Shown here: positions 8,277 through 53,060 of the stretch, one piece after another | Numbering within the stretch: the stretch's first letter is position 1 | Layout of the letters: each line of letters begins with the position of its first letter | Assembly (NCBI GenBank): GCA_041484665.1 | Contig: JBGPIA010000006.1 | Location: 96,001 to 160,000 of the forward strand | Source of the DNA: Candidatus Krumholzibacteriia bacterium | Lineage (GTDB): Bacteria; Krumholzibacteriota; Krumholzibacteriia; JAJRXK01 | Direction of reading: 5' to 3' | DNA: 64,000 nt | The notes under the pieces: generated by a model | The model's database searches: none | What the model was told of the DNA's origin: nothing | Seen by the model: the letters and a program-made list of their open reading frames with translations, nothing else | Program-made: the position numbers and the translations under genes

Positions 8277-9839
8277 CTACTTCTTCTTCTGGGACTGCTC
8301 GAGAGCCATGTAGAAGGTCCCATTCCCGCGCTGGACCAAGAGCAGCAGCGAGGCCTCGGCGTCCTCCTTCGCGGAGCGGTCCACGGCCTCCTGCAGGTTC
8401 CGGACGGTGGAGACCGCATCGTGGTTCACCTCGAGGATCACGTCGCCTGCGCGCAAGCCGGCCCGCGACGCCGCTGAATGCGGCGCCACCTGCGTCACCA
8501 CGACGCCGCTCGCCCCGCGTGGCAGCTCGAAGCGGCGCGTCAGATCGCTGTTGATGGTCTGCACGTTCACGCCGTCGAGGACCGCTTCTCCCTGGTCGGG
8601 CGCCCCGCGCGATGCGCGCGCCAGCGCCTGCTCGCTGGGCAGCTCGCCGAGCTTGACCTCGATCTGGCGGGGCCGACCCTCGCGCAAGACGTCGAGGTTC
8701 ACCCGGCTGCCGGGCGAGGTGTGGGCGATCTCGGTGCGGAACACCGCGTAGGAGTCCACTTTCTTGCCGTCGAGGCCCACGATCACGTCGCCACGCTTGA
8801 GGCCTGCCGCCTCGGCTGGGCTGTCCTTCACCACGTCACCCACCAGCGCGCCGTTGGTCGTCTGAAGCTTGAGCGTGCGCGCCAGCGAGGGGTTGATCCC
8901 CTGGATCGACACGCCCAACCAGCCGCGCACGACCTTGCCTTTGTCGCGCAAGTCCTCCATGACCTTCACGGCCAGCTTCGATGGGATGGCGAAGCCGACG
9001 CCCTGGCTCCCGCCGCTGCGGGTCACGATGGCCGAGTTGACGCCGATCATCTCGCCGCGCAGGTTCACCAGCGCCCCACCGGAGTTGCCGGGATTGATGG
9101 CGGCGTCGGTTTGGATGAAATCCTCGTAATCGACCAGGCCGGTGCCGGCGCGTCCGCGGGCGCTGACGATCCCCATCGATACCGACTCCTGCAAGCCGAA
9201 CGGGCTGCCGACGGCCAGCACGACCTCGCCGATGCGCATCGCATCGCTGTCGCCGACCTTGATCGGCGTCAGATCCTTCGCATCCACCTTCAGCAATGCC
9301 ACGTCGCTGGCCTCGTCGGCCCCGATGACCTTGGCAACGAAGTTGCGGCCGTCCTTGAGCGAGACCGTCACCTCCTTCGAGTCGCTCACCACGTGGTTGT
9401 TGGTGAGGATGTAGCCGTCCGCGCTGATGATGACTCCCGAGCCGAGGCTCTGCTCGGTCGGCTCCCGACCCGGGTTGTTGTCGTTGTTATCGTTGTTGTC
9501 ATCGTTGTCGTTGTTGTCGTCCCTGCCGGGAGGCATCTGGAAGAAGCGGCGCAGGAGCGGGTCGTTGAACGGCCCGAGTTGCCCGCTGTCCATGTGGACA
9601 CGCTTCTCGCTGGAGACGTTGACGACGCTGGGGACGACCGCCTCGGCGACGTCGGCGATCGTTGCGAGATCCTTGACGGGCGTGTCGGCGCCGCGCAGCG
9701 CGCTGGTGGCGCTCTCGTGCGTGGCGGCCGCCGCCTGCCCCGCGGGAGCGCTGGGCCGCAGCAGCAGCAGCGCCGCGGCGAGCAGGGCAGCCCCGAGGAT
9801 CGTCACCGGCAGAGCGCGACGCTCACGAATGCGGAACAT
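8277..9839 (-). CDS. DegP/DegQ (HtrA) serine endoprotease with two PDZ domains
   Basis: Signal peptide; GSGVII, TNNHV, DVALLK, IQTDAAINPGNSGGAL; two PDZ domains. Confidence 0.95.
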   Translation of the reverse strand: MFRIRERRALPVTILGAALLAAALLLLRPSAPAGQAAAATHESATSALRGADTPVKDLATIADVAEAVVPSVVNVSSEKRVHMDSGQLGPFNDPLLRRFFQMPPGRDDNNDNDDNNDNNDNNPGREPTEQSLGSGVIISADGYILTNNHVVSDSKEVTVSLKDGRNFVAKVIGADEASDVALLKVDAKDLTPIKVGDSDAMRIGEVVLAVGSPFGLQESVSMGIVSARGRAGTGLVDYEDFIQTDAAINPGNSGGALVNLRGEMIGVNSAIVTRSGGSQGVGFAIPSKLAVKVMEDLRDKGKVVRGWLGVSIQGINPSLARTLKLQTTNGALVGDVVKDSPAEAAGLKRGDVIVGLDGKKVDSYAVFRTEIAHTSPGSRVNLDVLREGRPRQIEVKLGELPSEQALARASRGAPDQGEAVLDGVNVQTINSDLTRRFELPRGASGVVVTQVAPHSAASRAGLRAGDVILEVNHDAVSTVRNLQEAVDRSAKEDAEASLLLLVQRGNGTFYMALEQSQKKK

Positions 9840-10137
9840 GATCTTTGCCTCCTGCCCCGCGGTGTGGGGCGCCTCACGTGCGACCGGAATCTTCTCGCTG
9901 CAGCAGACCGAACCCCGGCGCGGCCGGGACCATGCAACAGCTAGCGGCTTGAACGCGCTCGGAAGGGGGGAGTTCCGCCCGCTGCCCCGGCGGCGTCGGG
10001 CCATTCCAGGCGGACCCGAACGGAGTCGAATAGGAGACCCGCTGCCCCGATCGCGCGGGCCAAGGCCGTGCCGATCTGGCAGCCCGGTGCCCCGCGGGTG
10101 CGGGCCAAGGCCAAGCGGATCCAGCCGGTGACGACCA

Positions 10138-10245
10138 CGCCGCTTCGGCGCATTCGCCCGGCGCATCGGCCGGCCCACCGCTTCGGCGCTCCGGTCCGGC
10201 CCACCGCTTCGGCGTACCGGTCCGGCGCACAACTTCGGCGCATCG
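10138..10245. repeat. Short degenerate intergenic repeat (CTTCGGCG core, 4 copies; CCGGCCCACCGCTTCGGCG twice)
   Basis: Read directly between degP and the HAD gene. Confidence 0.55.
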
Positions 10246-12681: not shown

Positions 12682-13863
12682 ATGGTGAACCGACTCGGGA
12701 CCGACGGGCGGTACGAGGCGCTCATGCGAGCGATGCACCGCTCGGGCACCCACTCGGCGATCCGCAGGGCGGCTGCCGCCCGAGCGGAGCAGCCGGGCTC
12801 GGGTACCGCGCCGTCGCGGGAGATCCCCGCCGCAGATGCGATCCGGAGCTTTGGGGGGGCCGCAGTCCTCACCACGCGCAGGCCGCACGCGGTGAGCCCC
12901 GCGACTGTCCAGACGCAGCCCGGAAAGCCGCTCGATACCCTGCCGACGACCCCCGTGACCGACCAGCCGTCCGCTCTGACCGAGGTGGGCGACGAGACGA
13001 CCCCCTGGGGCAGCAACGGCTTCTCGGTGGCCCTCGAGCTGCGGATCCGCATCCAGCTCAACTTGCCGCCGCCGTCGGCAACGGCGACTGCGGCCCCTGC
13101 GCCGACGCTCCCGTCCGGTGGAGACACGCCGGCAACCTTGCCGAGTCAACCGCCCGAGGCCACGCTGCCGAGCAGCCAGCCGGGCGCCCAGCCCGGCACC
13201 CAACCGGACACGCCGACCAACACCCAGCCGGGGACCACCAACACCGACCTGCAGCGGCAGCTCAAGCTCGAGCTGCGCAGCGTCGGCAAGGAGGTCCGGG
13301 CCGCACTGCGCGACCTGCTCCACAGCAGGGATCTGTCGGCCGACGCGCGGACCCAGATCCGGGAGCTGGCCAAGCAGTTCCGCCGCGACGTGCGCGACGC
13401 TCTCAGCAATGCCAGCCAGAACGATCAGTTCGACCCGGACGCATTGATGGCGGGAGTGCGCCAGGCGCTGGACACGCTGGTGAACGGTCTGCAGACGCTG
13501 GCCACCCAGCTGTCGGGCGGCAGCGGGACTGATCAGCCCGGTGCCCAGCAGCCCCCAACCGGCCAGCAGCCGGCGCCGAGCCAACCTCCGGTGACCACGG
13601 GCGACACACCCACGATCATCCCGGTGACGCCGCCGCGGCTGCAACCCGGCGATCCGCCGTGGATCGTCCCCGTCACTCCGCCGCGGCTGCAACCCGGCGA
13701 TCCGCCGTGGATCGTCCCCGTCACTCCGCCGCGGCTGCAACCCGGCTTCCTGGCGGGCCTGCTGCCGATTGCCGTTGCGCAGCTCCAGCCCGGGCAGTTG
13801 GCCGCGGGGTACTCGTTCCAGTACAACATCCAGATCCAGGGACGCTTGGAACTCTACGCCTGA
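12682..13863 (+). CDS. Pro/Thr/Gln-rich hypothetical protein with a central helical domain
   Basis: 393-aa ORF with RBS GGAGG upstream; low-complexity flanks around a predicted helical segment. Confidence 0.65.
   Translation: MVNRLGTDGRYEALMRAMHRSGTHSAIRRAAAARAEQPGSGTAPSREIPAADAIRSFGGAAVLTTRRPHAVSPATVQTQPGKPLDTLPTTPVTDQPSALTEVGDETTPWGSNGFSVALELRIRIQLNLPPPSATATAAPAPTLPSGGDTPATLPSQPPEATLPSSQPGAQPGTQPDTPTNTQPGTTNTDLQRQLKLELRSVGKEVRAALRDLLHSRDLSADARTQIRELAKQFRRDVRDALSNASQNDQFDPDALMAGVRQALDTLVNGLQTLATQLSGGSGTDQPGAQQPPTGQQPAPSQPPVTTGDTPTIIPVTPPRLQPGDPPWIVPVTPPRLQPGDPPWIVPVTPPRLQPGFLAGLLPIAVAQLQPGQLAAGYSFQYNIQIQGRLELYA
13621..13746 (+). repeat. 48-bp coding tandem repeat (PRLQPGDPPWIVPVTP, about 2.5 copies)
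   Basis: Identical units at 13633-13680 and 13681-13728, plus partial copies. Confidence 0.9.
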
Positions 13864-14376: not shown

Positions 14377-14607
14377 CGCTCCCACCTCCGCCGCCCCCGC
14401 ACGCGGACGTCTCGCCAGCGCCCGGCCGCCTGCCAGACCCAACATTGCGCCGCGCGAGGGGCGGGCCTTTTTTTGTCCCGTCGCGCGCCCGGTCCCGCCC
14501 GCGGGCGTGACCCCGTCGCGGGTTGGCATTAGACTTGGGGGTTGTCGCGCTCGCACCGCCCCCGCGCGATGCCGGCAGCACCTGCCACGCGCAAAGGAGA
14601 CTGCTCC

Positions 14608-15900
14608 ATGGCTGAAGTCGCCAAGCTCGTCATCGACGGGAAGACCTACGAGCTGCCCATCGTCATCGGGACCGAAGGGGAGCGTGCGATCGACATCTCC
14701 AAGCTGCGCGCCACTGCCGGGTGCATCACCTTGGACACGGGCTACGCCAATACGGGGTGCTGCATCAGCTCGATCACGTTCATCGACGGGGACAAGGGCA
14801 TCCTGCGCTATCGCGGTTATCCCATCGAGGAGCTGGCGGAGAAGAGCACCTTCCTCGAGACAGCCTACCTGCTGCTGCACGGGGAGCTGCCGACGAAGGC
14901 GCAGCTGGAGAAGTTCAGCGACCTCATCACGCATCACACCATGGTGCACGAGGACATCATCCGGAACCTGTTCCGGGGCTTTCCCAAGAGCGCGCATCCG
15001 ATGGCCGTGACGGCCTCCGTGGTGGGCGCGCTGTCGACGTTCTACCAGGATTCCCTCGATCCCATGGATCCCGAGCAGGTGGGGATCTCGATGATCCGCC
15101 TGATCGCCAAGGTCTCGACCATCGCGGCCTACGCGTACAAGTACAGCATCGGGCAGCCGTTCAACTACCCGCAGAACCGGCTCACGTACCCAGAGAACAT
15201 CCTGCACATGATGTTCGCCACGCCGGCCGAGCGTTACGACGTGCACCCAGTGCTGGCCCGCGCCGTGGACGTGCTGCTGATCCTCCACGCCGACCACGAG
15301 CAGAACTGCTCCACGAGCACGATGCGCATGGTGGGCTCGTCGCAGGCCAACATCTACGCGTCGGTGTCCGCTGCGATCAACGCGCTGTGGGGCCCGCTGC
15401 ACGGCGGCGCCAACCAGGCGGTGATCGAGATGCTGCAGGGGATCTCCGACAACGAGGGCAGCGCGCGCGGGTTCCTGGATCGCTGCAAGGACCAGAACGA
15501 CACCACGCGGCTTATGGGCTTCGGCCACCGCGTCTACAAGAACTTCGACCCCCGCGCCCGCATTCTCAAGGAGATGACCCGTTCGGTGCTAGATGCGGTG
15601 GGCCGTTCGACGCGGCTGCTGGACATCGCGGTCGAGCTGGAGGAGATGGCGCTGCACGACGAGTATTTCGTGAAGCGCAAGCTCTACCCCAACGTCGATT
15701 TCTACAGCGGCATCATCTATCAGACGCTGGGCATCCCGGTGAACATGTTCACGGTGTTCTTCGCGCTGGGCCGGCTGCCGGGGTGGGTCTCCCACTGGAT
15801 CGAGCAGAACATGGACTCCAACACCAAGATCGGCCGGCCGCGCCAGGTCTACATGGGGTCCCGCGAGCGCCGCTACGCGCCCATCCAGGCGCGCGGCTGA
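14608..15900 (+). CDS. gltA: Citrate synthase (type II)
   Basis: GILRYRGYPIE, HADHEQNCST, GPLHGGAN, GFGHRVYKNFDPR, YPNVDFYSG; RBS AAAGGAG. Confidence 0.97.
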   Translation: MAEVAKLVIDGKTYELPIVIGTEGERAIDISKLRATAGCITLDTGYANTGCCISSITFIDGDKGILRYRGYPIEELAEKSTFLETAYLLLHGELPTKAQLEKFSDLITHHTMVHEDIIRNLFRGFPKSAHPMAVTASVVGALSTFYQDSLDPMDPEQVGISMIRLIAKVSTIAAYAYKYSIGQPFNYPQNRLTYPENILHMMFATPAERYDVHPVLARAVDVLLILHADHEQNCSTSTMRMVGSSQANIYASVSAAINALWGPLHGGANQAVIEMLQGISDNEGSARGFLDRCKDQNDTTRLMGFGHRVYKNFDPRARILKEMTRSVLDAVGRSTRLLDIAVELEEMALHDEYFVKRKLYPNVDFYSGIIYQTLGIPVNMFTVFFALGRLPGWVSHWIEQNMDSNTKIGRPRQVYMGSRERRYAPIQARG

Positions 15901-15964: not shown

Positions 15965-17728
15965 TCACCGGCTTCTGGCCTGAGCCACCGCCTCGCTCAG
16001 TGCCCGCGTCCACTCCCCCTGCGGCTCCTGCCGCTCGTACGCCCGCAGCAGCTCCTCGGCCGCGGGCAGGTCCCCGCGGTCCAGCGCGATCTGCGCACGG
16101 TCGTAGAGCGCGCGCAGGTAGTGCGGCGAGGACTCCGGAACGTCCTTCAGGCTGCACTCAGCCGCGTCCAGCAGCGCGCGGCGTGCGCGTGGGTCGGCCA
16201 CTTCCTGGGCCTGCTCCCGAGAGACGATCGCTCGACCGATGAGGGCCTCGGGATCGCGGGGATCGATCGCCACCGCGCGATTGTAGGACTCCGCGGCCAG
16301 TGCCAACCGGCCGTGCGTCAGCCGGAGGTGCCCCAAGACGTCCAGGAGCTGGACGCGGTCGCCGCCGCGAGCCCGCGCCAGCTGCTGCACCAGGTCCCGC
16401 TCCACTTGCTCGTAACGCGCCTGCGCGGCCGGATCGATGGGAACCACCGCGGTCCGACGCAGGGGACCGGGCAACTCGGGCCGCAGGGTCTGGGCGAGGC
16501 GCAGTGGGCTGTCCAGCGCCCGCGGCATCAGAGTGCCCGCCTCCAATAACGCGTCGCGGATCGCGGCTTCCACGTCGTCACGCTGGCGGTGCAGGCACAG
16601 CGCGAGAGCCGCAGCCAGTGCGAGCAGCAGGCCCGCCGCGATCCCGGCGGTCCATGCGGGTCGCCGCGACAAGCGCGCGCGCATCCCGCGCCCCGCTCCG
16701 CCTGCCACTGGCTGCGCGGGCGACGCAATCGAAGCGGTCGGCGCGGGCGGCGCAATCGAAGCGGTCGGTGCGCTCTGCGCGGCCGCGCGGGCGAGGATTC
16801 CTTCCAGACGCTCCTGCGCCGGAGCAGGGAAGCGCGCCGCGTAGTCGGCGAGCTCCTGGGCGGTCGGTGGCGCCCCCACCAGCTTGGACCAGAGGCGCAG
16901 CGTGCGGCGGCACTCCGCGCAGCGTGTCAGGTGGGAGATGCGCCGGTCGCGCTCCGCAGCGGAGAGCTCGCCGGCCAGGAAGCGTAGCGCGTCTTCGTCG
17001 CCGCCCCAGTGCTCCGGCGGGAATTCCGGGCCACCCGGATCGGGGCCGCCGGGGTCGAGGTCGCGCGAGCGCGCGCCGGGCCCGCCGAAGCTCCGCTGCA
17101 TCACGCCCCTGGCTTTAGCCAGCACCTTCTCGACGCCCCCACGTGACAGGTTGGTCCAGCCACCGTCAGCGATCTCCTGGGCCGACATCTCGCCCAGCCA
17201 GGCCAGCTGGCAGATGAGGATGTCGCGCTCGCACTCCGGCCGCCCGTGCCAGACTCTCCGCAGCTCGCGCTCGAAACGCTCGCGCCATTCGTCGTTGATC
17301 ACCGACTGCAGCGGATCTGGCTGGGGATCCGAGATGTTCTCCAACACGCGCTCCTGCGCCTGCGCGTCCGGCATGCGCACGACGCGGGGCCGGGACTGCG
17401 CCGACTGCCGGCGCATCAGATCGGTCAAGGCGCGCCGCGCCGTCAGCGCGAGGTATCTCTTGAATACCTGCTCGTCGCGTGCCCGGAACCGCAGGAGGGC
17501 CGCGCGATCGTCGCGCAGCAGCTTCACCCAGGTCTCGATGCAGACGTCAGCGATGTCGACGTCTCCGTTGGACAGCAGATACCCGCCGCGCGAGGCGCGC
17601 TGGAGCACGGTGAAGATGTGCGGATCGTAGGTCCGGTACATCTGGTACCACGCTTTCCGATCGTCGGCGGACGCGGCACACCGGGCAAGCAGCTCGGCGA
17701 AGGGCAGCGGGTCAGGCAGGGGAGGCAT
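15965..17728 (-). CDS. ECF-type sigma factor fused to a zf-HC2-like anti-sigma domain, a TM helix and TPRs
   Basis: Sigma2-like DIADVCIETWVKLL...FKRYLALTARRALTDLMRR; sigma4-like MSAQEIA..LSRGGVEKVLAKAR; ZAS-like HLTRCAECR; TM AGIAAGLLLALAAALALCL; TPR-like C-terminus (YNRAVAIDPRDPEALIGRA). Confidence 0.82.
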   Translation of the reverse strand: MPPLPDPLPFAELLARCAASADDRKAWYQMYRTYDPHIFTVLQRASRGGYLLSNGDVDIADVCIETWVKLLRDDRAALLRFRARDEQVFKRYLALTARRALTDLMRRQSAQSRPRVVRMPDAQAQERVLENISDPQPDPLQSVINDEWRERFERELRRVWHGRPECERDILICQLAWLGEMSAQEIADGGWTNLSRGGVEKVLAKARGVMQRSFGGPGARSRDLDPGGPDPGGPEFPPEHWGGDEDALRFLAGELSAAERDRRISHLTRCAECRRTLRLWSKLVGAPPTAQELADYAARFPAPAQERLEGILARAAAQSAPTASIAPPAPTASIASPAQPVAGGAGRGMRARLSRRPAWTAGIAAGLLLALAAALALCLHRQRDDVEAAIRDALLEAGTLMPRALDSPLRLAQTLRPELPGPLRRTAVVPIDPAAQARYEQVERDLVQQLARARGGDRVQLLDVLGHLRLTHGRLALAAESYNRAVAIDPRDPEALIGRAIVSREQAQEVADPRARRALLDAAECSLKDVPESSPHYLRALYDRAQIALDRGDLPAAEELLRAYERQEPQGEWTRALSEAVAQARSR

Positions 17729-18049
17729 CTTCGGGGGCGCGCAGTGAGCGATGACCGCGTGCGTTCCCGAGTATGGCACAACCCGACGTTCCTGGCGCCG
17801 GAAGGTCCCGGTGTGGACCAGCCCGCCTGCGGCCGTCCCTAGCCAATAGAGACGCAGGAATGGGGGGATCTCCCCCCTGGAAATCGGAGCTACAATCGCC
17901 CGCGGGCGGTTGTCCCGACGATTCCGGCGCCCGCCCCGAGCACCCGGGCGCACGCCCACGCCGGTTTTCCGGTTCCGTTGGAGGACGATTCCATCCGCCG
18001 CGATCCCGCAGTGTCGCCCCGCGGTCCGCGCGCCCGCTCGTCGCCCCGC

Positions 18050-21000
18050 ATGCTCACGGCGGGCGCCGTGGGCGCGGTGATGCTCGCGGCCGGCGGCCTC
18101 CTGCTCACGCTCCAGGCCCGCCGCGCGGCGCCACCGACCCCCCCCGCGCTGAGCGCCGCGCTGCCGCTGCCGCCCTACATCGACGGTCCGCTGCCACCGG
18201 GCTTGCCGGAGCCTACGACCGGGGCCCCGGCCAGCCCTGATGAGCTACAGGGCCTGCTCGCCCTGCACGCGGAGGGCCTCACGCGCCGTCCATCGGACGT
18301 CGGGCTGCGCGTGCGGACGATCGCGCTGGAGCTGGCGCTGGACCTCCCCGACGCGGCGCTGCGCGACGCGCTCGAAGCGCCCGCCCACGATCCCCGGCTG
18401 GCATTCCTGGAAGCCGGGTCGCGCCTGCGGGGGGCGCCGCGCGTGGACGATCCGCTGGACGAGGAGGATCAGCTGCGGCGGGCCACCCGTGCGCTCGCCC
18501 CCTTGCGCGCGCTGTCCGCCTTTCGGCTGCCGGCCGACGTGCTGCGGGCACGGATTGCCTGCAGGCTCGGCGAGGCCGGGCCGGCGGACTCGCTGCTGGC
18601 CTTCGTCCCCGCTTCGGCGGAGGGCTGGCGCGCGCGCCTGCAGGCTGCAGCGCTGCAGACGGGGCTGGGAAACCGCACCGCCTGGAGAGACCAGTTCGTC
18701 CTGCGCGAGAGCTCGGCCGATACCGCTGCGATGCGCGCGCTCGCCCGCGGCTGGCAGCTCAATTTCGTGCGCTGTTTGCAGGCCGACCTGGATACGGCCT
18801 GGAACCGGACGTTTGCGGAGGATCTTGCGGCACGCGACTCGATCGTCGCGCGCGTGCGGCGCCTCGCCGGCGAGCTGGGCACGCCGGCCGGCCTGTGCAA
18901 CGGCGTGCTCTCGGAGGCAGACCAGCTGGTGGCGTTTCCGCGCGCGCAGCTCCCGCGCGCACGCCGGCTGGACGCCACCTTCCGGCGGCTGATCGAGCTG
19001 ATCAACCCCCCGGCGGGCAAAGTACCCAGCGCGGCGAGCTACGACTCGGTCCTGGTGCTGACCCCGGCGGCGCTGGCGGACGCGGCGGCGCTGGGGTGGA
19101 AGCGACGCGCGTTCGATCTGCATTGGGCGCGCGCCATGGCCCTGGACGGGCTTGACCGCCCGGCCGACGCCCTGGACGAAGCGCGCGCGATGGGCGCCCT
19201 GGCGCGTGCGGCGAACGACCCCGCGATGGCCTGGGCGACCGCACGATGGGTCCACTCCGCGGCGTCGAACATCGGACGCTTGCAGGAAGCGCTCGACGCA
19301 CTGGCCGACTTGCAGCGGCTCGACGCGGCTTGGCAGTTCGACGCAGCGACCGTGAGCCGGGGCAATGGCTTTCTGCGGTTTCAGCTGGGGGACCTGCGCG
19401 GAGCCTTCGAATACTGGGCGCTCGGCTACCGCGACGCGCGTCGCCAGGGGGCCGTGGATGCGATCGTGAGCAATCTCGAGAATCTCGCGTTCGCGTCCCT
19501 CGCTCTGGGCCGCCCCCAGAAGGCAATGGCGTACGCCGGCGAAGCGATCGAGACAGCACAGGGTCCCCGTGCGCAGCGGTTGCCGCCGAACCGCAAGAAG
19601 AGCGTGCACACCACCGCAGCGTACGCCCGCGTCGACCTCGGCGTCGCGGTGGCGCAGCAGCCGGGCGGCGACCTCGCCCCGTTGCGGGCAGCGATCGACA
19701 CCTGCGAGGCGAGCCCCGTCGGGCGCGCCGCCGTCGAGGGGCGAATGATCCTGGCGCGGCTGCTGAGCGCGCGCGGCGCTCAGGCGCAGGCGCAGTCCGA
19801 GGCGGCGCAGGCGCGGGCGCGCGCCGAGGCCGTCGACGCAGCCGACCTTGTGTGGCGCGCCACCGCGGTGCATGGCGAAGTATGCGCTGCGAGCGGCCGG
19901 GTGCAGGAAGCCGCGGCCGACTTCGAGCACGCGCTGGGCGAAGTGGAAGCGCTGCGGGGTTCCCTGGTGAAGCGTGACGAGCGTACGGTCCTGCTGCTCT
20001 CAGCGCGGGAGCTGGCCGACCGCTACATCGCGCTGGAAGCCGACGGTCTCAAAGACGCGGCGGCGGCATACGTCATCGACGAACGCTCCCGCGAGCACCG
20101 ACTCCGCGAGCAAGCGGGGCCCGCCGCCGCGGCAGCGCCGTGGCAATCCGAGCGTGCCCGCACGCTGGACGAGGTGGCCAATACGCTTCGCGACGGCGGG
20201 TTGCTCGTGCAGTTCCGCGTCGAGGACTCCCGCGTTCGCCTGTGGGCGGCGACGCGCCGGGAGCGCACGGCAGCAACCGTGACCATCGCCAAGGTCGAGC
20301 TGGACAGCCTCGTCACCGAGTGGCTGGCGGCCATCGAGGGGGGATCGAGCAGCTCGATCGCGGGGATCCTCGGGGACCGGCTGTTGGGGCCGATCGCCAC
20401 GTGGGTCGAGCCGGCACGCGACCTGGTGATCGTACCCGATGGCGCGCTGTGTCGGGTGCCGTTTGCGCTGCTGCGCCTGGATGGCCGCCGCCTGCTGGAG
20501 GACCACGTCGTGCGGTACGGGATCAGCGGGACCACCCAGGTGTCCCTCGCGCAGCGACGCGCGGGCAAAGGGGGGCGCACCACGACGGTCGCACCGCGGG
20601 TGCTGGCCGTGGGTTACGGCGGCAGCTGGGGTGAGGGCGGCGAAGGCACTCCCGCCGCGCCGCGCGCCACGGCGGCGCCCATGCTGCCCTTCGCGGAGCG
20701 CGAGGTGGCGGCCGTCGCCGCACTCGCTCCCGGCTCGGTCCTGCTCACCGGCACGCTGGCTTGCCCCTCGCGCACCCTCACCGCCCTTCCGCGCGCGACC
20801 CACCTTCACATCGCCGCGCACAGCGGCGTGGACCTGGTCGGCCGGCCATTTCTGCTGCTCGCCTCCGATCCGGCCAGGCTGGGGGGGGGCGACGGCGCGG
20901 CCGGCGGCGCAGGCGGCGGCGGCAACGGCGCCGGGGGGGTGCGCGTGACGGCACAGGAGATCGCGCGTTGGCCTCTGGCCGGGGTACGGCTGGTGACGCT

Positions 21001-21382
21001 CTCGGCCTGCTCCACCGCTCCCGCGCCCGGCGACGGCCGCGTCCTCGCTACAGGCGCGGCTTCGCGTGCGACCGGAGCCTCCGCGATGAGCGCCGCCGGG
21101 GCCGCGGGCGCGCCGGACTTGGAGCTGGCCACAACCGCCGGCGGAGTCACTGGCCTGGGTGCCGCAATCTTCCTAGGGGGGGCCGGAGCTCTGATTGCGT
21201 CTCTATGGGATGTCGAGGATGCCTCGACGCTGGATTTGATGCAGCTCCTGTATGCGTCGCTGCTCACTGAGGGAGCCGACCCGGCGGAGGCGCTGCGGAC
21301 CGCACAGCTCCAGCTCGCGCGCCGGGACAGTCCTCCGCTGCCCGAGCGCGCGTGGGGCGCTTTCTGCGCCTACGGTCCATGA
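18050..21382 (+). CDS. TPR-CHAT (caspase/HetF-like) protease
   Basis: Helical/TPR N-terminal region; CHAT motifs LVIVPDGALCRVPFALL, HLHIAAHS (His), LVTLSACST (Cys), IASLWDVED, WGAF; N-terminal hydrophobic segment. Confidence 0.9.
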   Translation: MLTAGAVGAVMLAAGGLLLTLQARRAAPPTPPALSAALPLPPYIDGPLPPGLPEPTTGAPASPDELQGLLALHAEGLTRRPSDVGLRVRTIALELALDLPDAALRDALEAPAHDPRLAFLEAGSRLRGAPRVDDPLDEEDQLRRATRALAPLRALSAFRLPADVLRARIACRLGEAGPADSLLAFVPASAEGWRARLQAAALQTGLGNRTAWRDQFVLRESSADTAAMRALARGWQLNFVRCLQADLDTAWNRTFAEDLAARDSIVARVRRLAGELGTPAGLCNGVLSEADQLVAFPRAQLPRARRLDATFRRLIELINPPAGKVPSAASYDSVLVLTPAALADAAALGWKRRAFDLHWARAMALDGLDRPADALDEARAMGALARAANDPAMAWATARWVHSAASNIGRLQEALDALADLQRLDAAWQFDAATVSRGNGFLRFQLGDLRGAFEYWALGYRDARRQGAVDAIVSNLENLAFASLALGRPQKAMAYAGEAIETAQGPRAQRLPPNRKKSVHTTAAYARVDLGVAVAQQPGGDLAPLRAAIDTCEASPVGRAAVEGRMILARLLSARGAQAQAQSEAAQARARAEAVDAADLVWRATAVHGEVCAASGRVQEAAADFEHALGEVEALRGSLVKRDERTVLLLSARELADRYIALEADGLKDAAAAYVIDERSREHRLREQAGPAAAAAPWQSERARTLDEVANTLRDGGLLVQFRVEDSRVRLWAATRRERTAATVTIAKVELDSLVTEWLAAIEGGSSSSIAGILGDRLLGPIATWVEPARDLVIVPDGALCRVPFALLRLDGRRLLEDHVVRYGISGTTQVSLAQRRAGKGGRTTTVAPRVLAVGYGGSWGEGGEGTPAAPRATAAPMLPFAEREVAAVAALAPGSVLLTGTLACPSRTLTALPRATHLHIAAHSGVDLVGRPFLLLASDPARLGGGDGAAGGAGGGGNGAGGVRVTAQEIARWPLAGVRLVTLSACSTAPAPGDGRVLATGAASRATGASAMSAAGAAGAPDLELATTAGGVTGLGAAIFLGGAGALIASLWDVEDASTLDLMQLLYASLLTEGADPAEALRTAQLQLARRDSPPLPERAWGAFCAYGP

Positions 21383-21505
21383 GGGAGGGGTCCCCCTCCA
21401 GGGGGCCTTTCGGCATGGAGGGATCCATCCGGGAGGCCCCCGCCGCTTCGGCTTTGGCGCGGTGCACACCCCAGGACGGGCCCGCCGCGCTCCGGGAGGT
21501 CCTCC

Positions 21506-22096
21506 GTGTCCAACAACGTTGTCATCGAAGTCGGCAAGATCTCCATCTTGCAGGCTGGCCTGCTCACACCGCCCGACTTGCCCCAGAGCTACGACCGCGA
21601 CAAGGTCGTGCTGCTGGTGATGAACGATCCAGCAGACGTGCGCTACGAGGTCTACGCGGGCACGCGCAGCGTGAGCATCAAGCCGGGTGACGAGGCTGGG
21701 GACTGCTGCCTCATCGCCACCGCCCCGGGCCTTCCCCTCGGCAGGCGCGCCCTGCTCTACCCGAGCCGCTTGATCGGTCACCAGGAGTTCGGGCACTCCT
21801 GGCCGACGGAGTGGTTCCAGTCTGCAGGCGCCAGCGTGCCCGACGGGCCGTATCGCACGGCCTTTGGTTTGGTCGCCGACGACTACGCCTGGAGCTGGAG
21901 CGACGATAACGGTCTGCCCACCTACAACGTGGCGATGCCCCTGGGCACCCGCGTCTTCAAGGTCGTGCGCAGCGCCCAGTCCGGTGGCGCGGATGACGTC
22001 ACCGAAGTGCTCGCCGGCCAGTCCATCGATAGCATCCGCCTGGTGCGCGGCAGCGGCCCCCTACAGAACAACGGAGGGGAGCCCTGGCCTCCCTGA
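21506..22096 (+). CDS. Hypothetical protein (196 aa) between the CHAT and S8 genes
   Basis: GTG start with GGAGGT RBS; coding-like GC3 bias; no recognised family. Confidence 0.75.
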   Translation: MSNNVVIEVGKISILQAGLLTPPDLPQSYDRDKVVLLVMNDPADVRYEVYAGTRSVSIKPGDEAGDCCLIATAPGLPLGRRALLYPSRLIGHQEFGHSWPTEWFQSAGASVPDGPYRTAFGLVADDYAWSWSDDNGLPTYNVAMPLGTRVFKVVRSAQSGGADDVTEVLAGQSIDSIRLVRGSGPLQNNGGEPWPP

Positions 22097-22122
22097 ACGA
22101 TCCTAACGGTCGCGAGAAGTCC

Positions 22123-23661
22123 GTGGCCTCGGGCGCCCGGTCGCCCGAGGCCGCGCAAACTGCCCAGATCGAGGTGGCCGTGCTCGCGGAGCTGGACCCG
22201 CGCGTGCTGCCCGATCCGCGCACGGCCCAGGACATCCGCGAGCGCGCCCACCAGCGGGCGCAGGTCGCGCGCGCGGTCGCCGACATGCGCGCGGCGCTCG
22301 AGCCCCGTCTGCTCGCCTCGATCGGCGCACAGATCACCGCGGGCCTATCGTTGGCGCCCGTGCTCGCAGTGCGTCTACCCGCGGGCCTCCCGCCGAAGGT
22401 GGCCCTGGACGAGCTCGCGCGGCAGCCGGGGATCCTCGCGGTGGATGTGCGCTCGCTGCTGCTGCGACAGCCTCATGCATCGCCTGGCCACACCGACCTC
22501 CCACCAGCCCCGGCAGCCTCCAGCGAATTCCCCAGCGATGGCCCCACCACCGCCCTGCCCCCACTGGTGGGAATCGTCGAGCTCGGACGCCCCGACCTCA
22601 CGCACCCTCAGCTGGAAGCCTCGGCGCGGCCGTGGAGCGAGTCGGGGCGGCGCCGCCTGCGTAGCCTGGGAGACCCCGTGGTCCACCCGCACGCCACCGC
22701 TGTGGTCGCGGCCCTGCTCGCCTCGACGAGCGACGATGCCTTCGACGTGCTCTGCTACAGCCTGCCGCGTGACCGCCGCCAGCTCGCGTGGTTGTCGGCG
22801 CTGGACGAGCTGATCGCCAGAGGCGCGAGCGTCATCAACCTGAGCTTCGGGGTGTGGCCGGACGACCTGGAGGACGGCTGGGGCCTGCTGGAGCGGGGCA
22901 TCGAGGTCTTGTGCGCGCTGCACGGGGTCACCGTCGTCGCCTCCGCCGGCAACGGCTCGCGTGACCGCGCCGAGCTGCACCAGGTGCGCGTGCCGGCGCG
23001 CGATCCCGCGGTGTTGGCGGTGGGCGGTGTGATCGAGGAGGGAAGCGGGTTGTCTGCGTTCGAGCGCGGGTGCGCCAGCAAGGACGGCAAGCCCGAGCTG
23101 GCAGCCGTGGCGAACCATCCGTTCGGGGAAACGGCGGGCACGTCGATGGCAGCGCCGCGCGTGACGAAGATCGTGGCCGAGGCAATGGGCCAGGTGCGCC
23201 AGGCGGCGCACCGGCCCGAGCTGGCGCGGGCGCTCGTGCTCGCAGCCTGCGAAGCCGGGCCGCGCGACCCCCATGGCAGCGATGGACCAGTCGGGCACAG
23301 CACGGGATTGGGCATCCCGGCGCGGGCGCGGTTGCAGGAGATCTGCCGGCGCGGCTGGTTCGCGTGGGGCACAGGAAACGGGCTGGTCCCTCTGCCCCCC
23401 GATCGCTCCGAGAGCGGAGGCGAGCTGCGCGCCGTGCTCTGCTGGCAACCGCGGGGGCTCGACGAGCTGCTCGGGCAGCAGCAACCGCGCCCCGCGGTCT
23501 CGCTGGCGCTGCACCTGGTCGATGCGACGGGGCATCTCGTGGCCCAGGCGCGGGCCTACGCCGCTTGGGCGCCGCTGGTTACGCGGCGGCCGGCTGCGGG
23601 ATCGCTGCGCGTGCAGTCGGCGGGAATTCCGTGGGGCTTGGCCTGGTGGTACGAGCGCTGA
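22123..23661 (+). CDS. S8 (subtilase) family serine peptidase, no evident signal peptide
   Basis: VGIVELG (Glu at the Asp position), HPHATAV, VINLSFG, ASAGNG, GTSMAAP. Confidence 0.88.
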   Translation: MASGARSPEAAQTAQIEVAVLAELDPRVLPDPRTAQDIRERAHQRAQVARAVADMRAALEPRLLASIGAQITAGLSLAPVLAVRLPAGLPPKVALDELARQPGILAVDVRSLLLRQPHASPGHTDLPPAPAASSEFPSDGPTTALPPLVGIVELGRPDLTHPQLEASARPWSESGRRRLRSLGDPVVHPHATAVVAALLASTSDDAFDVLCYSLPRDRRQLAWLSALDELIARGASVINLSFGVWPDDLEDGWGLLERGIEVLCALHGVTVVASAGNGSRDRAELHQVRVPARDPAVLAVGGVIEEGSGLSAFERGCASKDGKPELAAVANHPFGETAGTSMAAPRVTKIVAEAMGQVRQAAHRPELARALVLAACEAGPRDPHGSDGPVGHSTGLGIPARARLQEICRRGWFAWGTGNGLVPLPPDRSESGGELRAVLCWQPRGLDELLGQQQPRPAVSLALHLVDATGHLVAQARAYAAWAPLVTRRPAAGSLRVQSAGIPWGLAWWYER

Positions 23662-23709: not shown

Positions 23710-25239
23710 TCAGGGCGCCGCGGCCAACAGCTCCTGCAGCGCCGCGGCCAGACGCGTCCGGTCCAGCGTGAACTGGCCGGGACGCTGCTCGACCCACTCG
23801 GTGCGGCTGGCGACCCGGCCAGCGGCGCTGCGACCCTGCTCGAGGTCCTTGATCGTGACCTTGCCCGAGCGCGCCTCGTCGGACCCCAGGATCACCGCAT
23901 AGGGAATGCCCCAATAGCTGGCGTAGCGTAACTGCTCGCCCAGCCGTGACGCGGGCTCCAGCCAGAGCTCTGCACGCAGCCCCGCAGCGCGCAGCTCGCG
24001 CACGATGGATTGGCACTCGGCGAGCAGCGCGCGGTCCATCACCGTCACCAGCACCTGCGTGACGCCGGCGCGCTGCGCCTGCCCCTGCCGCTCGCGCGGG
24101 TGCTCGAGCGCCGCTAAGAGCCGATCCACGCCGATGCTGGCGCCCACGCCCGCAATCGCCTCGCCCGAGAAGCGCGAGACCAGCTCGTCGTAGCGGCCGC
24201 CGCCCATGATGCTGCCGAATTCCGGCAACGCGTCGAGCGTCGCCTCGAAGATGGGCCCGGTGTAGTAGTCCATGCCGCGCGCCAGCTTGGGGGCGAAGCG
24301 GATACGCGCGCCCGCGCCCGGGGTGGCGCGACTCGCGGCTGCGAACGCGCCCGGGGGCGCGCTTGCGCCAGAGGCTTCGCCCGCTGCCCCACCGGTCGCC
24401 ACTCCCCCGCCCATCGCAGTCAGGTGGCGCCGCAGCTCGTCGATCTCCGCGAGCGCAACCTGGGCCTGTGGCACGGCCGAGAGCAGCGCGCGCGCCTGCT
24501 CGACTCTGTCCTCGTCGCTGACGGCCTCGATGCGCAGGAAGTCGGCCAGCGCCTCGATCTGCGCGGCGGGCAGGCCGACACCCTCGATGCGCGCACCGGA
24601 CTCCTCGTCCACGCGACCCGCGCCCAGCTCGGCGCGCACGCCGTCCAGACCGATCTTGTCTTCCTTGTCGATGACGCGGATGACGGCCGTCGCGAGAGCC
24701 GGTGGCACGCCAGCGCGGCGCAGCGCACCGTTGAGGATGCCGCGATGGTTCCAGCGGATCGTGTGATCGGGCAGCCCCAAGGCCCCCAGGCTCTCCCCCA
24801 TCGCGAGCAGGATCTCCGCGTCGGCCAGCATCGAGCGCGTGCCCACGGTGTCGATGTCGAACTGGAGGAACTCGCGGAAGCGGCCGGCGCCGGGCTTGTC
24901 CACGCGGAAGACGGGGCCGATCTGGTAGCGCTTGAACGGGCGGCGCAGCTCCGGGTTGGCGGCCACGAAGCGCGCCAGCGGCACCGTCAGGTCGAAGCGC
25001 AGGCCGAGATCGATCTCATCCTCGGCATGGCGCCAGCTGTAGATGCGCGCGGCCGTCTCGCCGGCTTTGGCCCCGACGAGCACGTCGCGCAGCTCGAGGA
25101 TGGGGGTTTCCAGCGGCTGGAAGCCGTAGCGCTCGAACACGCCGCGAATCGTCTCGACCATGGCGGCGCGCCGCACAAGGGTGGCGCCGACGATGTCGCG
25201 CATCCCCTTGGCCAGACGCGGCTCGATATGATCGGTCAT
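23710..25239 (-). CDS. hisS: Histidine--tRNA ligase
   Basis: LRFDLTVPLAR, GRFREFLQFDID, LARGMDYYTG, GGGRYD, C-terminal anticodon-binding domain. Confidence 0.96.
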   Translation of the reverse strand: MTDHIEPRLAKGMRDIVGATLVRRAAMVETIRGVFERYGFQPLETPILELRDVLVGAKAGETAARIYSWRHAEDEIDLGLRFDLTVPLARFVAANPELRRPFKRYQIGPVFRVDKPGAGRFREFLQFDIDTVGTRSMLADAEILLAMGESLGALGLPDHTIRWNHRGILNGALRRAGVPPALATAVIRVIDKEDKIGLDGVRAELGAGRVDEESGARIEGVGLPAAQIEALADFLRIEAVSDEDRVEQARALLSAVPQAQVALAEIDELRRHLTAMGGGVATGGAAGEASGASAPPGAFAAASRATPGAGARIRFAPKLARGMDYYTGPIFEATLDALPEFGSIMGGGRYDELVSRFSGEAIAGVGASIGVDRLLAALEHPRERQGQAQRAGVTQVLVTVMDRALLAECQSIVRELRAAGLRAELWLEPASRLGEQLRYASYWGIPYAVILGSDEARSGKVTIKDLEQGRSAAGRVASRTEWVEQRPGQFTLDRTRLAAALQELLAAAP

Positions 25240-25343: not shown

Positions 25344-25420
25344 TGGTACTGGCGGATGGATTTGAACCATCGACCCCCAGATCCACAGTCTGGTGCTCTA
25401 GCCAACTGAGCTACGCCAGC
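25344..25420 (-). tRNA. tRNA-His (GTG), CCA encoded
   Basis: GCTGGCGTAGCTCAGTTGGCTAGAGCACCAGACTGTGGATCTGGGGGTCGATGGTTCAAATCCATCCGCCAGTACCA folds as a cloverleaf with anticodon GTG. Confidence 0.96.
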
Positions 25421-28863: not shown

Positions 28864-31800
28864 GTGATGACGTGGACGCTCCGGGCTCGCAGCGGGCGAC
28901 GCGTGTGGCACGCGCTGCTTGCATTGCTGGGAGCCCTTCTCCTGCTCGCTCTTGCTTCGACGCGTACCCGCGCCGGCCTCTCGCCCATCCAGGACGCTCT
29001 CGCGATCGTCCTCGACCCGGCCACCGGACAGCACGTGGGCCAGGCCGCACCCAACGTCCCGTTCAATGTGTACGTCGTGGCCGACAGCCTCGGCGGCACC
29101 GAGATGAGCGCCTGCCAGCTCGGCGTCGAGATCGACCCGCGCTTCTACATCGTCAGCAAGACCTTCCATCCGCAGGTCGTCTTCGTCGACGAGTACGTTC
29201 CGGGTGACTTCTATCTGGGCTTCGGCAGGCCGCTGGGCAACTGGCAGCAGCCCAAGATCCTGATCACGCTGAGCTTGATGTTGAAGTCCGAGTACGCCGG
29301 GGCCAACGACCTCCGGGTGAGCCTGCGCCCGCACACCACCGGGCAGCCCTTGCGCTGGGCGTGGTTTCCCGGGACGTCGTTCTGGTACGACTTCGTCGAC
29401 GCGGGCGGTGCGGTGCTGAATCCCTCCGGACCGCAGATCACCACGTTCGCCGCCGGGCCGCGCTGGCTGGTCGAGGCGCGGCCGCTGCTGCTGGAGTGGG
29501 GCACGTACAACGCGAGCACGGTGCTGCTGGACGGGCAAGCCGTCGATGCACAGGGCAGCCTGCGTCTGACCCCGGCCGCCTCGACCACGTATACCCTGCA
29601 GGTTGATCCGGGCGGCGCCGCGCTGGAGCGGAGCGTCTCGGTCGAGGTCGTGCGCCAGCCGCGCATCCTGGAGTTCAGCGCCAATCCCCCGCATCCGGCG
29701 ATCGGGGACACCGTCCAGATCCAGTGGGAGGTGCGCGGCGCGGATGAGGTGCGCCTCCAGCCGGGCAACGTCACCGTCGGGCCCATCAGCGCGCTGCAGC
29801 AGGTGCTGGTGAGCCCCACGCAGTTCGTGCTGGCCGCCCAAAATGAGTGGGGGCAGTCGATCGAGGTGCTGGAGTTCGGCTTCAGCGGCCTGCCGGTCAT
29901 CGAGGAGCTGCGTGCCGAGCCGGTCCCGGTGGACCGCAACGCGCCCGCTACGCTGACCTGGCGCGTCACCAACGCCGTCGACGTACGGATCGAGCCCGGC
30001 CTGGTCTCGGTGCCGGCCTACGGGCAAGTGCAGGTGCCCACGGATCACACCGTGACGTACACCATGACCGCCTCCAACGCCGAGGGGACCGTCGACCGGG
30101 AGGTCGAGCTGACGGTGATCCCGGTACGGATCGCGGCGTTCATCGCGGCGTCTCCGCGGGTGTTCCCGGGCGCCGCCGCGCACCTGGTCTACGATCTGCG
30201 CAACGCAACCAGTGCCTGGATCGAACCAGGCGGCCTGCCGATTACTCCGCCGGAGGGGACGATCAGGGTGGTCCCGCCCGCCGACTCCACTTTGTACGTT
30301 CTGCACGCCACCGACGGTGAGACCGAGGTCCGCGCGCAGCAGCTGGTGCGGTGGAAGCCGCCTACGATCACCCAGTTCACCTGGTCCCCTAGCACATGGT
30401 ATGGCGTGAGCGGCGTTCCCTATGGCGGTGAGGCTGAGTTCTACTGGAACATCGATGGGGCGACCTCCGTGCGTCTGGATCCCGGCATCGGCCAGGTAAG
30501 CACCACCACCGGCAGGCAGACCGTGCGCGTCATCGCTTCGGTCACCTACACGCTGACCGCTTCCAACGCGCAGGGCACGGCGACGGAGTCGCGGACGGTA
30601 GCGCCGTCCAAGCCCGTGGTGCGCTTGAGCCTCCCGGGCGGCGCTCCGAACTGGGGAGCACAGTACTCGCTTGCTGCGTCCGCCGACAACGTCACGGGGG
30701 TGCGGCTCACGCCGCGTCCCCCGAGCCCGATCATCGTCGGTGGCCCGCTCTGGTCAGCGACGATCACGGCCCGGGCCGACAGCGTGACGACCTGGAGGCT
30801 GGTCGGGACAACGCCCGTGGACTCCGCATCGGTCACGTTGACGGTCACGCCCGCGGGGGGCCCCGTCACCACTCTTACTACGGTCCCTGCCTGGATCCCG
30901 GAGGGCGGCAGCAGTGTGCTCTCCTGGTCGGCCGCGCTGGCGGATTCGGTGCTGATCGAGCCGTTGCATCTGCGCAGCCGCTCACTGACGGGCCAGGTCA
31001 CGGTCAGCCCGCTGGGCTCCACCACCTATACGCTGCGGGTTTACTTCCGCGACATCGTCATCGCCAACACCGCAACGGTCACCGTCCAGCGGCCGATGGT
31101 GAGCCTCACTGCGGTCCCCGCTAGTCCGCTGGAAGGGGCGCTGTACCGTCTGGAAGTGCGCATCGCCTGGGCGGCGGGCGCACGACTGGATCCCACGCCC
31201 GGTGTGATCCAGCCGCGGAACTGGGATATCAATGAGCGTGCGGATGTTACCACGACGTGGCGCCTGGCAGCCTGGAGCGCCGGGGACACGGCGCGAACCA
31301 CACTGACCGTCGTGCCTATGATCGCACCGCCCACGATCAAGCGCTGGGCGGCGTCGCCCAGCGTCATCGCTCCCGGCGACTCGGCCACGTTGTCGTGGGA
31401 TGTCGCCCCTTGCGACTCGATCCGCATCAAGCCCATCAACGTCCACAGCACCGCGAAGACCGGGACCGCGCGCGTTGCGCCGAATCAGACCACGGTGTAC
31501 ACGCTCTTTGCGTATCGCGGTCCATACACGGTGCAGGCACAGACGACTGTCGCGATCAGCCTGCCCGCGATCCAGGTATTCCGCGCCGATCCCGCCACGA
31601 TCCACCGCGGAGAGAGCGCGACGCTGCGCTGGACCGTCGTTCCTCCGCAAGCGCAGGTCGTGCTGGTGGATCACGGCACGGTGGCCGCCACGGACAGCCT
31701 GCGGGTCACTCCGTTCAACACCACCGACTATATCCTGCGCGCGACCTACCTGGCCATGCAGGTCCAGCGCGGCGTGCACGTGGAGGTGACCGAGCCCGGA

Positions 31801-47928: not shown

Positions 47929-48414
47929 GGCCGATGCTCCTTCTTTGGGGGATGACGTCGCCGGGAAGCAGGCGCTCGAGGCGACGTCCCCACAGCCCTG
48001 CGGCACAACTGAGCGTGCGCGGCCCGCTACGCGCATCCGGAACACGACGCGAGTGCGGCAGGAAGTTGCACCAGACCGATGGTAAGGGGGCATTGGCGGG
48101 CCCGCGGTACAGCAGGCCGAGCGTCACCGGGGGAGCCCAGCGCGCGGCGGGCGCGTGGCAGCCGGGGTCTACTTCCTACGCTTCACCACGGCAGCGTGGG
48201 GCAAGACGCTGCGCGTTATGCTCGCCAAGTGAGCGGACGTGGGGATCCTGTCTGATGTGCCGCTCCCGCCTGCGCTGGTTCGGCCTCCCTGGCGCATCCG
48301 GGCGGGCGCAAGGAAACGAAAACCCACAGGAACGACGCTTCGCGGGAGCGTCGCACGGTGGGCAAGCGCGTTGTACACCGTGGAGTCTTGGGGTACGATC
48401 TAAGCACGGCGCGC

Positions 48415-52700: not shown

Positions 52701-53060
52701 GATGGTCTGATCGGAAGCCGGATGGAAGGTGAGCCTGACCGGCTCACCGCCCGCGGACGGCATCAGGTAGACATCGTCGTTGCCCTCGTACTGCGCGGTG
52801 AACGCGATCCAGCGCCCGTCCGGCGAAACGCACGGGAAGCGCTCGTCGCCCTCGTACGCCGTGAGGCGCACGGCGACGCCTCCGGCCAGCGGGACCTTCC
52901 ATAGGTCGCCCTCCGAGGCGAAGACGATCATGCCCCCACCGATTCCGGGGTAGCGGTAGAAGCCGTCCGGCAGAGCCGGAGGCTCTGCGGCATCGGCTTG
53001 CGGGATCGCAAGGGAGAGTGCCACGAGCGAGGCGAGGGCGATCAGGCTGGCGACCTTCAT
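49713..53060 (-). CDS. Tricorn protease homologue (S41 family)
   Basis: Signal peptide; PD40 propeller repeats, PDZ-like region, DDRWNHGG, GGSDCE, GTRTWGG, EGHGVDPD. Confidence 0.93.
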   Translation of the reverse strand: MKVASLIALASLVALSLAIPQADAAEPPALPDGFYRYPGIGGGMIVFASEGDLWKVPLAGGVAVRLTAYEGDERFPCVSPDGRWIAFTAQYEGNDDVYLMPSAGGEPVRLTFHPASDQTIGWTADGKILFRSRRDHPHGDFRTYTLFPQGGIPQMIPLEPAAWISFEPGGQRLALQKFGLEFHNWKRYKGGRAEDIWVGKLDPLAFDEVTHWEGKDAFPMWAQDGRIYFVTDRWGRPNLASMKPDGSDVQRLTHFADYDVRWPAMGGGKIVYQHKMDIWVYDLATGRNEQLPIQLPSDRLQLRERFVDPTANLGGWSLSKDGERIAIETRGDVFVARTHKKGLIRRITESSSARTQFPAFAPDGKTIATWTEQDGEEQLFLHAADNGAAPRQLGKQPSGWHFAPAWSLDGKRLAWGDEKYRLYVTDVASGNATPVDEGKWEISHYAWSPDSRYLAYVAVLENLFTQVRIWDAQAKASYAASDPMVNTFSPAWDLKGKYLYYLSDRFINPYPDRFEARFILDNATLPCVVALQDDGTLPFGARGDTDPVGASDDKKHDAKKGEKKEQDKATADKKGDQDDTPVGPIRIDFEGLADRLVEVPVDPGNYDDLRAIDGKLHWLNASSRGLMPHDADTNESPGAELQTYDFEKEKVSTVTSGVLAYQVSGNGKVLVYQTKDGFTRLEAGATEAPKDDAAKEAKIDLSGWSLRIDPRAEWAQMFHEAWRLQRDFFYDAKMHGVDWDGVWKQYGPLTTRISSRDDLEDMLGEMFGELNVGHAYHWGGDLRHGKQVGTGLLAADLDFDAASGFWKIRKIYRGDYPDPRWSSPLARPDLHVKPGQWLVAIDGKALVKGEDYLKRLANRAKQAVELSINDAPKLEGARRVVVEALANDTPVRYATWIRETRDYVDRKSHGQIGYLHLYDMGGLGLRQFARDYPPQWRKRALIVDDRWNHGGSVAPMILAHLDRKILAVGGTRYGNIDTTPSHAFHGYLACLINRQGGSDCETLALGFKQFGLGPVIGTRTWGGWIGIRGDKPLRDGGMITEPEFGGWDPQGKAWIIEGHGVDPDVELDLGPDGFLHGQDAQLDDAIDRLMGEIAKDPRDLAPAPPIVARPLQPVD

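Follow-up and report, generated by a model that had tools for sequence, protein, structure and literature searches.

Between gltA and hisS, in a 64,000-nucleotide (nt) window of the genome of a Candidatus Krumholzibacteriia bacterium (GenBank assembly GCA_041484665.1, contig JBGPIA010000006.1, positions 96,001 to 160,000), lies a block of four genes, confirmed here at the span where an earlier note on this DNA had placed its four open reading frames (ORFs). They code for a sigma factor of the extracytoplasmic function (ECF) type fused to an anti-sigma domain and tetratricopeptide repeats (TPRs), a TPR-CHAT protease, a 196-aa protein and an S8 subtilase (Table 1). Our best reading, by analogy with characterized systems, is a proteolysis switch of DdvA/DdvS-like and IutY-like type with its parts split: on balance we favor the view that the unit acts across the envelope, the CHAT protease freeing the fused sigma factor, which in turn would drive transcription both of its own gene and of the 196-aa–S8 gene pair from two copies of a promoter-like element.

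The first of these copies recurs ahead of the sigma genes of all block carriers: GGA-N16-CGTC is found ~110-150 nt upstream of the gene in 6/7 genomes, and with N15 in the seventh, where 0.04 occurrences are expected per region, from which autoregulation of the sigma factor is predicted. We take these elements to be putative ECF-type promoters from their likeness to -35/-10 consensus forms; GGAA..CGTC-like promoters are common among ECF sigma factors. The second copy, located by a pattern search on the same strand as the 196-aa and S8 genes, is embedded in the CHAT gene itself. It is exact in all five genomes of a sister genus and coincides with the 12-codon window of lowest third-position GC (GC3) in the CHAT alignment (0.51 vs 0.77). 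In the window its -10 half is written in rare codons (TCT, 1/53 Ser; CTA, 3/147 Leu; ATT, 2/24 Ile); the sister-genus copies need a TTA codon, which is the only TTA of the CHAT gene in 3/5. Under synonymous shuffling the embedded copy arises with P 0.002-0.005 per genome, and synonymous sites are near saturation (codon identity 0.35-0.47 in 9/10 sister-genus pairs). Since this element is embedded in the CHAT gene, the 196-aa protein and the S8 subtilase are likely, judged from sequence, to be outputs of the sigma factor rather than substrates of the CHAT protease. This element, in a coding stretch close to the active site, sorts the cassette into an input (CHAT, sigma) and an output (196-aa protein, S8), and the same test for an embedded element could be applied to similar cassettes.

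Across the window's genome the tight form of the motif occurs at 8 sites, with 0.88 expected and 0-3 seen at other spacers, and 7/8 of these stand upstream of a co-oriented gene: this sigma gene, the genes for a C14 caspase, a papain-family (C1A) protease and a small membrane protein, and three genes whose products are secreted or lipoproteins. Among the 40 sigma70_r2 loci of the genome only this sigma gene has the tight motif upstream, and the extended form is present in 6/208 genomes of the phylum, all of them block carriers. It is very likely that this sigma factor reads the element. The other tight-motif sites in relatives (4 + 1) are mostly within ORFs, and one precedes a membrane gene. 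CRISPR or CBASS genes were not found after the motif sites, CBASS not having been searched genome-wide. A scan with the sigma70 consensus returned no promoters. The loose motif RGGARN14KCGTCY was discarded as too common genome-wide to inform, and a 13-spacer variant of the looser motif (11 occurrences vs ~3, mostly inside ORFs) was treated as noise. Apart from these, a ClpB-like gene of the window's genome has a looser form 84 nt upstream (C1:220318). A housekeeping-type TTGAC-N18-A...T element that the sister genus conserves downstream of the ECF-type element, ~95-100 nt ahead of the sigma match (loci L030, L031, L033-L037), was not seen in the window.

The sigma gene encodes, in order, the ECF sigma factor (sigma2-sigma4), a GGPGARS linker, an anti-sigma domain, one transmembrane (TM) helix, a conserved periplasmic linker and the TPRs; residue numbers of the fusion follow the 664-aa ORF, not the 587-aa product. 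The membrane tether, anti-sigma domain and TPRs described in the earlier note are borne out. TIGR02937 scores 49 bits against a cut-off of 42.9, with PF04542 under its cut-off and a weak zf-HC2 match in the anti-sigma domain. The start codon of that note, GTG 17959, is replaced: ATG 17728 is most likely the start, because the database gene call is of 587 aa, the orthologues align from there and the longer ORF would cover the promoter-like element. The orthologues are 32-35% identical. Six were aligned, the frameshifted copy of a seventh being excluded; its frameshift falls just past the R-G linker motif (L015:6540-6570, minus strand) and is either an assembly error or a natural truncation. P485, L486, R487, L488, Q490, E495, G498 and R501 of the periplasmic linker are invariant in 6/6, and G-x-x-R-G is also kept in the frameshifted copy. 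This motif is a candidate CHAT cleavage site, and GGPGARS a candidate point of release or degradation stop. The anti-sigma zinc motif HxxxCxxC is present in the window and in one relative (G002) and lost in the other four aligned orthologues. As a discriminator among the anti-sigma factors of the window's genome the R-G motif was rejected (hand-picked sets, 10 vs 8). A homologue search gained no distant members of the fusion family among its top 8000 candidates. A repeat search gave one tandemly duplicated 27-nt stretch, within the sigma gene, and otherwise only chance matches.

The CHAT domain (PF12770, 127.9 bits against a cut-off of 24, E 7e-37) has an intact His/Cys dyad, as had been claimed, and this dyad is invariant among orthologues that are 25-32% identical and kept in all 17 aligned CHAT domains of the window's genome, which argues for catalysis. 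The ORF is open from TTG 17978 and likely starts at GTG 18011. A hydrophobic signal-like N-terminus, on which the earlier note is silent, is seen in 7/7 orthologues (h-region at residues 34-45, by hydropathy only), and for this reason the TPR-CHAT protein is likely periplasmic or exported. The closest solved structure to a profile of the genome's CHAT paralogues is that of DdvA (PDB 8rot, E 1e-11); PDB searches with a single sequence or with another profile missed the solved CHAT domains. An invariant Asp (D1081) lies four residues before L1085, a position to which we return below. The window's CHAT alone among the seven has a 35-residue Ala/Gly insert right after C1011 (window 21008-21150) and a ~19-residue Gly insert before it. 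The former was inspected by eye as a substrate-mimic loop and set aside, having no linker motif.

Table 1. The four-gene block, its sequence elements and its flanking genes (window coordinates)
Feature	Position	Strand	Remarks
gltA (flank)	14542-15900		PF00285
Sigma/anti-sigma/TPR fusion	15965..17728	-	587 aa from ATG 17728
Periplasmic linker PLRLxQ...E..G-x-x-R-[G/R]	16454..16507	-	residues 485-502 (R501)
TM helix	16592..16648	-	residues 438-456; mean hydropathy 2.0-2.5 over 19 residues in 6/6; more K/R before than after
GGPGARS	17066..17086	-	residues 292-298; between sigma4 and anti-sigma domain; invariant in 6/6
ECF-type promoter-like element GGGGGA[AG]-N13-YGCGTCY(YTA)	17847..17876	-	points at sigma gene
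TPR-CHAT protease	18011..21382	+	divergent from sigma fusion
Dyad H948, C1011	20819-21, 21008-10	+	invariant in 7/7 orthologues
Second copy of element	21176..21205	+	inside CHAT 3' end, codons ~1066-1076; ~300 nt before 196-aa gene
196-aa protein	21506..22096	+	no recognised family
S8 subtilase	22123..23661	+	signal-less
hisS (flank)	23710-25239		PF13393

The S8 subtilase (PF00082, 53 bits against a cut-off of 21.8, E 4e-14) has a propeptide-like N-terminal domain (~14-113), a catalytic domain (E153/H190/N277/S341) and a C-terminal beta domain (~413-511), with no signal peptide by hydropathy. The His and Ser that had been noted earlier do stand, His190 and Ser341 being invariant in 7/7, although the site as a whole is non-canonical: the acid residue is Asp in 4/7 and Glu in 3/7 (Glu153 in the window), and the oxyanion Asn is present in 2/7 (N277 in the window). 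It may be weak or inactive. The best solved relatives of its profile are the cyanobactin N-terminal proteases (3zxx, 4h6v, 4h6w; E 1e-16 to 1e-15), with subtilisin BPN' behind them (E 2e-8), and by fold the whole model is nearest to Tk-SP/KP-43 (Foldseek probability 1.0). Its TIGR03895 score is 32.7 bits, well short of the cut-off of 421. The homologue search (top 8000 candidates) gained no distant S8 members.

The 196-aa protein has no Pfam match, no signal peptide by hydropathy and no recognised TM or toxin domain. Its family amounts to 13 clusters (50% identity) in a collection of 1.84 billion representatives, and the names in the 10 clusters looked up offer nothing beyond 'hypothetical protein'. 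The AlphaFold2 model is mostly beta (pLDDT 88.6, pTM 0.87; 68 and 55 in the last two blocks), with a flexible C-terminal tail whose conservation (0.62) exceeds that of the body (0.46) and which shows the pattern G..Q..PP in all 17 rows that have the C-terminus. Foldseek gave no match at E<=0.001 in PDB or BFVD, the best VIA Z in a set of 48,161 chains was 2.8, over 57 residues, and two members gave no usable match in the ESM Atlas, blanks that do not establish a new fold. Gasdermins are absent from the fold-search listings, which an unlisted gasdermin family could escape. An internal duplication (hhalign probability 0.3%) and a ubiquitin-like GG end (several members lack the last GG) were both rejected. 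A complex prediction of the S8 subtilase (residues 120-512) with the 196-aa protein scored 0.00 with the verdict 'no answer', and is evidence neither way. The family is in itself a confidently modelled target for structure determination.

The block is a recurring unit, as a synteny check that the earlier note had proposed makes clear: the CHAT, 196-aa and S8 genes stand in the same order and orientation, with the sigma fusion divergent, in 6/9 other genomes of the family. Carriers amount to 7/208 genomes of the phylum, belong to three genera of a single Candidatus Krumholzibacteriota family, and in each of the seven the sigma fusion and the CHAT protein are separate divergent genes; the named relatives with the block are likewise Candidatus Krumholzibacteriota. 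It occupies two chromosomal sites: the gltA-hisS position is kept in a second genus, whereas in five genomes, all of another genus, the block sits elsewhere. Its GC content (70-76%) equals that of the flanks, without anomaly. In the window the CHAT and 196-aa genes are separated by 124 nt with hairpins (21383-21505, z -2.1), against ~30 nt in relatives. A profile search detects the 196-aa protein in 7/208 genomes. Of the 208, 24 are matched by the sigma profile and 19 by that of the S8 subtilase, full-length only in the same seven, the others being partial (E>=4e-12 and E>=1.5e-9, respectively). These profiles were made from the seven loci, which score high by construction, so that the informative part is the absence of full-length matches from the other 201 genomes, many of them incomplete. 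The co-occurrence of the four genes exceeds chance.

The block is not the only one of its kind in its genome. The genome has 24 CHAT matches (23 above the cut-off), and at least eight other full-length CHAT genes adjoin genes for ECF sigma factors and TM anti-sigma factors; thus, the input half (sigma, anti-sigma, CHAT) is a recurring design there. Of these at least eight paralogous modules with signal-bearing TPR-CHAT proteins (e.g. C17:43189-48241, C11:46052-51864, C46:1787-6088, C1:650677-655278 and C22:24668-31596), most adjoin secreted proteins.

In the switch that we propose, some signal, whatever its nature, would activate the CHAT protease via its TPRs. The exported enzyme would cut the periplasmic linker of the membrane-anchored fusion, probably at or near G-x-x-R501; RseP would cut within the membrane, an M50 (RseP-type) protease being encoded in 10/10 family genomes, and cytoplasmic proteolysis would trim the anti-sigma domain back to about GGPGARS. 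Once free, the sigma factor would direct transcription of both its own gene and the 196-aa–S8 pair. We infer all of these cleavage steps; release of the sigma factor by proteolysis, as the earlier note had it, appears the likeliest mechanism from sequence and analogy. That the CHAT protein is the site-1 enzyme for the fusion is probable. That the 196-aa protein and the cytoplasmic S8 subtilase form a processing pair of narrow specificity, with the 196-aa tail or the sigma factor as its target, we hold tentatively, and more tentatively still that the CHAT cut falls precisely at the G-x-x-R501 bond. With enzyme and substrate encoded apart, sigma and anti-sigma in a single chain and the predicted promoter located at two places, two genes plus a reporter could suffice to reconstitute such a switch.

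A precedent is presented by DdvS/DdvA of Myxococcus xanthus (PMC11506125, PMC6061681; PDB 8rot), which shares an ECF sigma factor, a zinc-type TM anti-sigma factor, available RseP and a periplasmic TPR-CHAT with a His/Cys dyad near the post-TM linker. This TPR-CHAT is turned toward the TM linker, and DdvA without it is degraded by RseP (PMC11506125). In contrast, the sigma factor is here fused to the anti-sigma domain, CHAT is a separate exported protein, the anti-sigma domain has its own TPR tail, and the output is the 196-aa protein and S8 subtilase rather than CBASS/CRISPR. By layout the fusion can be likened to IutY (ECF243) and ECF48/52/53, where sigma, (zinc-type) anti-sigma, TM and outer domain form one chain (PMC5411451, PMC8999054); for IutY proteolytic activation is shown, with release of the fused sigma factor by Prc and RseP (PMC5411451). 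Here, the outer domain is made of TPRs, a dedicated CHAT gene replaces Prc and the TonB receptor, and the host is not an actinobacterium. In the actinobacterial ECF54 context, too, an ECF sigma factor is accompanied by a TPR-CHAT, a subtilase and a small partner gene, with proteolytic control proposed (PMC7826278, PMC8999054). ECF54 has no anti-sigma factor and a +1 gene with a carboxypeptidase-regulatory-like domain, whereas the krumholzibacteriotal block has a membrane-tethered sigma factor, a CHAT with a signal-like N-terminus and a small gene without Pfam match. CHAT is also linked to a sigma factor, or has a second protease nearby, in the Csx29-Csx30-CASP-sigma and SAVED-CHAT/PCaspase systems, but these reside in the cytoplasm and have CRISPR RNA or cyclic oligoadenylate (cOA) as their gating signal (PMC9729208, bioRxiv 2023.06.23.546230). 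The independence from CRISPR that had been suggested for the block stands, with no RAMP gene in 10 family genomes (5/14 controls positive). The PatA/PagA cyanobactin proteases (3zxx, 4h6v, 4h6w) are signal-less like the S8 subtilase, which differs in its non-canonical active site, its distance from the TIGR03895 cut-off and the lack of cyanobactin genes. The block is a variant of a known sigma/anti-sigma/CHAT design, ECF54 being a catalogued context; no literature on this gene arrangement was found, though subscription journals and supplements may contain some.

Several points weigh against the proposed switch. Even for DdvA, CHAT cleavage is only proposed (PMC11506125). The separase S1 Asp, which binds P1 Arg (D2151 in C. 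thermophilum), corresponds to L1085 by an indirect alignment via Csx29 K670 (PMC9729208, PMC10317155), and Arg specificity is therefore without that structural support. R-G after the TM helix also occurs in 4/8 anti-sigma candidates with no CHAT nearby. The embedded element has one -35 mismatch in the window (GGG for GGA) and is missing from G002. For the CHAT gene, no promoter of its own was found. The further regulon genes are not common to the carriers, the C14 caspase being present in 0/9 relatives. Moreover, the motif was refined after these sites had been seen, which makes re-finding them partly circular; the non-circular part is that two genera share one motif, at a site outside coding sequence in the one and within it in the other. 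As to the output, the complete D/H/N/S set occurs in 0/7 S8 subtilases and the pro-domain is missing in 2/7. Finally, the carriers, though of three genera, are kin.

Other readings can be weighed against the same evidence. An anti-phage or conflict module, in which the switch senses attack and induces cytoplasmic proteases or effectors harming the infected cell, would be compatible with the proposed switch. It could draw on the CBASS-CRISPR island that DdvS/DdvA controls (PMC11506125), on the motif preceding signal-less C14 and C1A protease genes in the window's genome (C10:139631-140633 and C19:54952-56107) and on weak PADLOC subtilase matches (E 8e-7), none of them specific. However, the gltA-hisS position is stable in two genera without GC anomaly, RAMP matches are absent as stated, the 196-aa protein is unmatched in phage and plasmid collections and has no recognised TM or toxin domain, and the paralogous modules adjoin secreted proteins. 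The 'conflict locus' of the earlier note thus finds little support: a defence role is possible but unsupported, and we regard this reading as unlikely. The same circuit might also run with TPR-CHAT as a non-cleaving sensor or cap for the sigma factor's TPR tail, a Prc- or DegS-type housekeeping protease making the site-1 cut as for IutY. The L1085 position, the use of Prc by IutY (PMC5411451) and the fact that CHAT activity is not shown for DdvA (PMC11506125) are consistent with this, but the persistence of H948/C1011 at such low identity and across the genome's CHAT domains, together with the invariant linker motif, makes it distinctly unlikely. A further proposal, which we consider quite improbable, is peptide autoinduction: the sigma factor would induce a precursor of possibly new all-beta fold together with a PatA-like protease, which would cut off the precursor's conserved G..Q..PP tail of ~14 residues, and the peptide, or protein released by lysis of kin, would bind the CHAT TPRs and drive further sigma release. 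If true, the output promoter would be written into the protease's own coding sequence.

There is little probability that another ECF sigma factor reads the element and that the block belongs to a larger regulon instead of forming a self-contained loop. Promoters of this general type are widespread among ECF sigma factors, the genome has its 40 sigma70_r2 matches and the tight motif occurs 0-2 times in non-carrier genomes, but none of the other 39 sigma loci, those of the other CHAT-linked modules included, has the motif upstream, and its extended form is found in 0/201 non-carriers. Direct maturation of the 196-aa protein by CHAT, which the earlier note had entertained, or activation of the S8 subtilase after the manner of Csx29-Csx30 or SAVED-CHAT and PCaspase, is very improbable in spite of the adjacent, co-directional genes and the precedent for CHAT-started cascades (bioRxiv 2023.06.23.546230), because the predicted compartments of CHAT and the 196-aa and S8 proteins differ and the embedded element gives the latter separate transcriptional control.

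Elsewhere in the window, a tRNA-His gene lies directly upstream of hisS (25344-25420, minus strand), and a 393-aa low-complexity ORF without Pfam match above cut-off (12682-13863, plus strand) contains three copies of a ~16-residue Pro-rich repeat. At 8277-10232, 49713-53060, 28864-32814, 37265-41842 and 45670-48093 are encoded DegP-like and tricorn-like proteases and three large FlgD-Ig-ended proteins. An ORF at 54799-56730 (minus strand) combines a match to the thiol-activated cytolysin family with a laminin G domain, which is unexpected for an environmental lineage.

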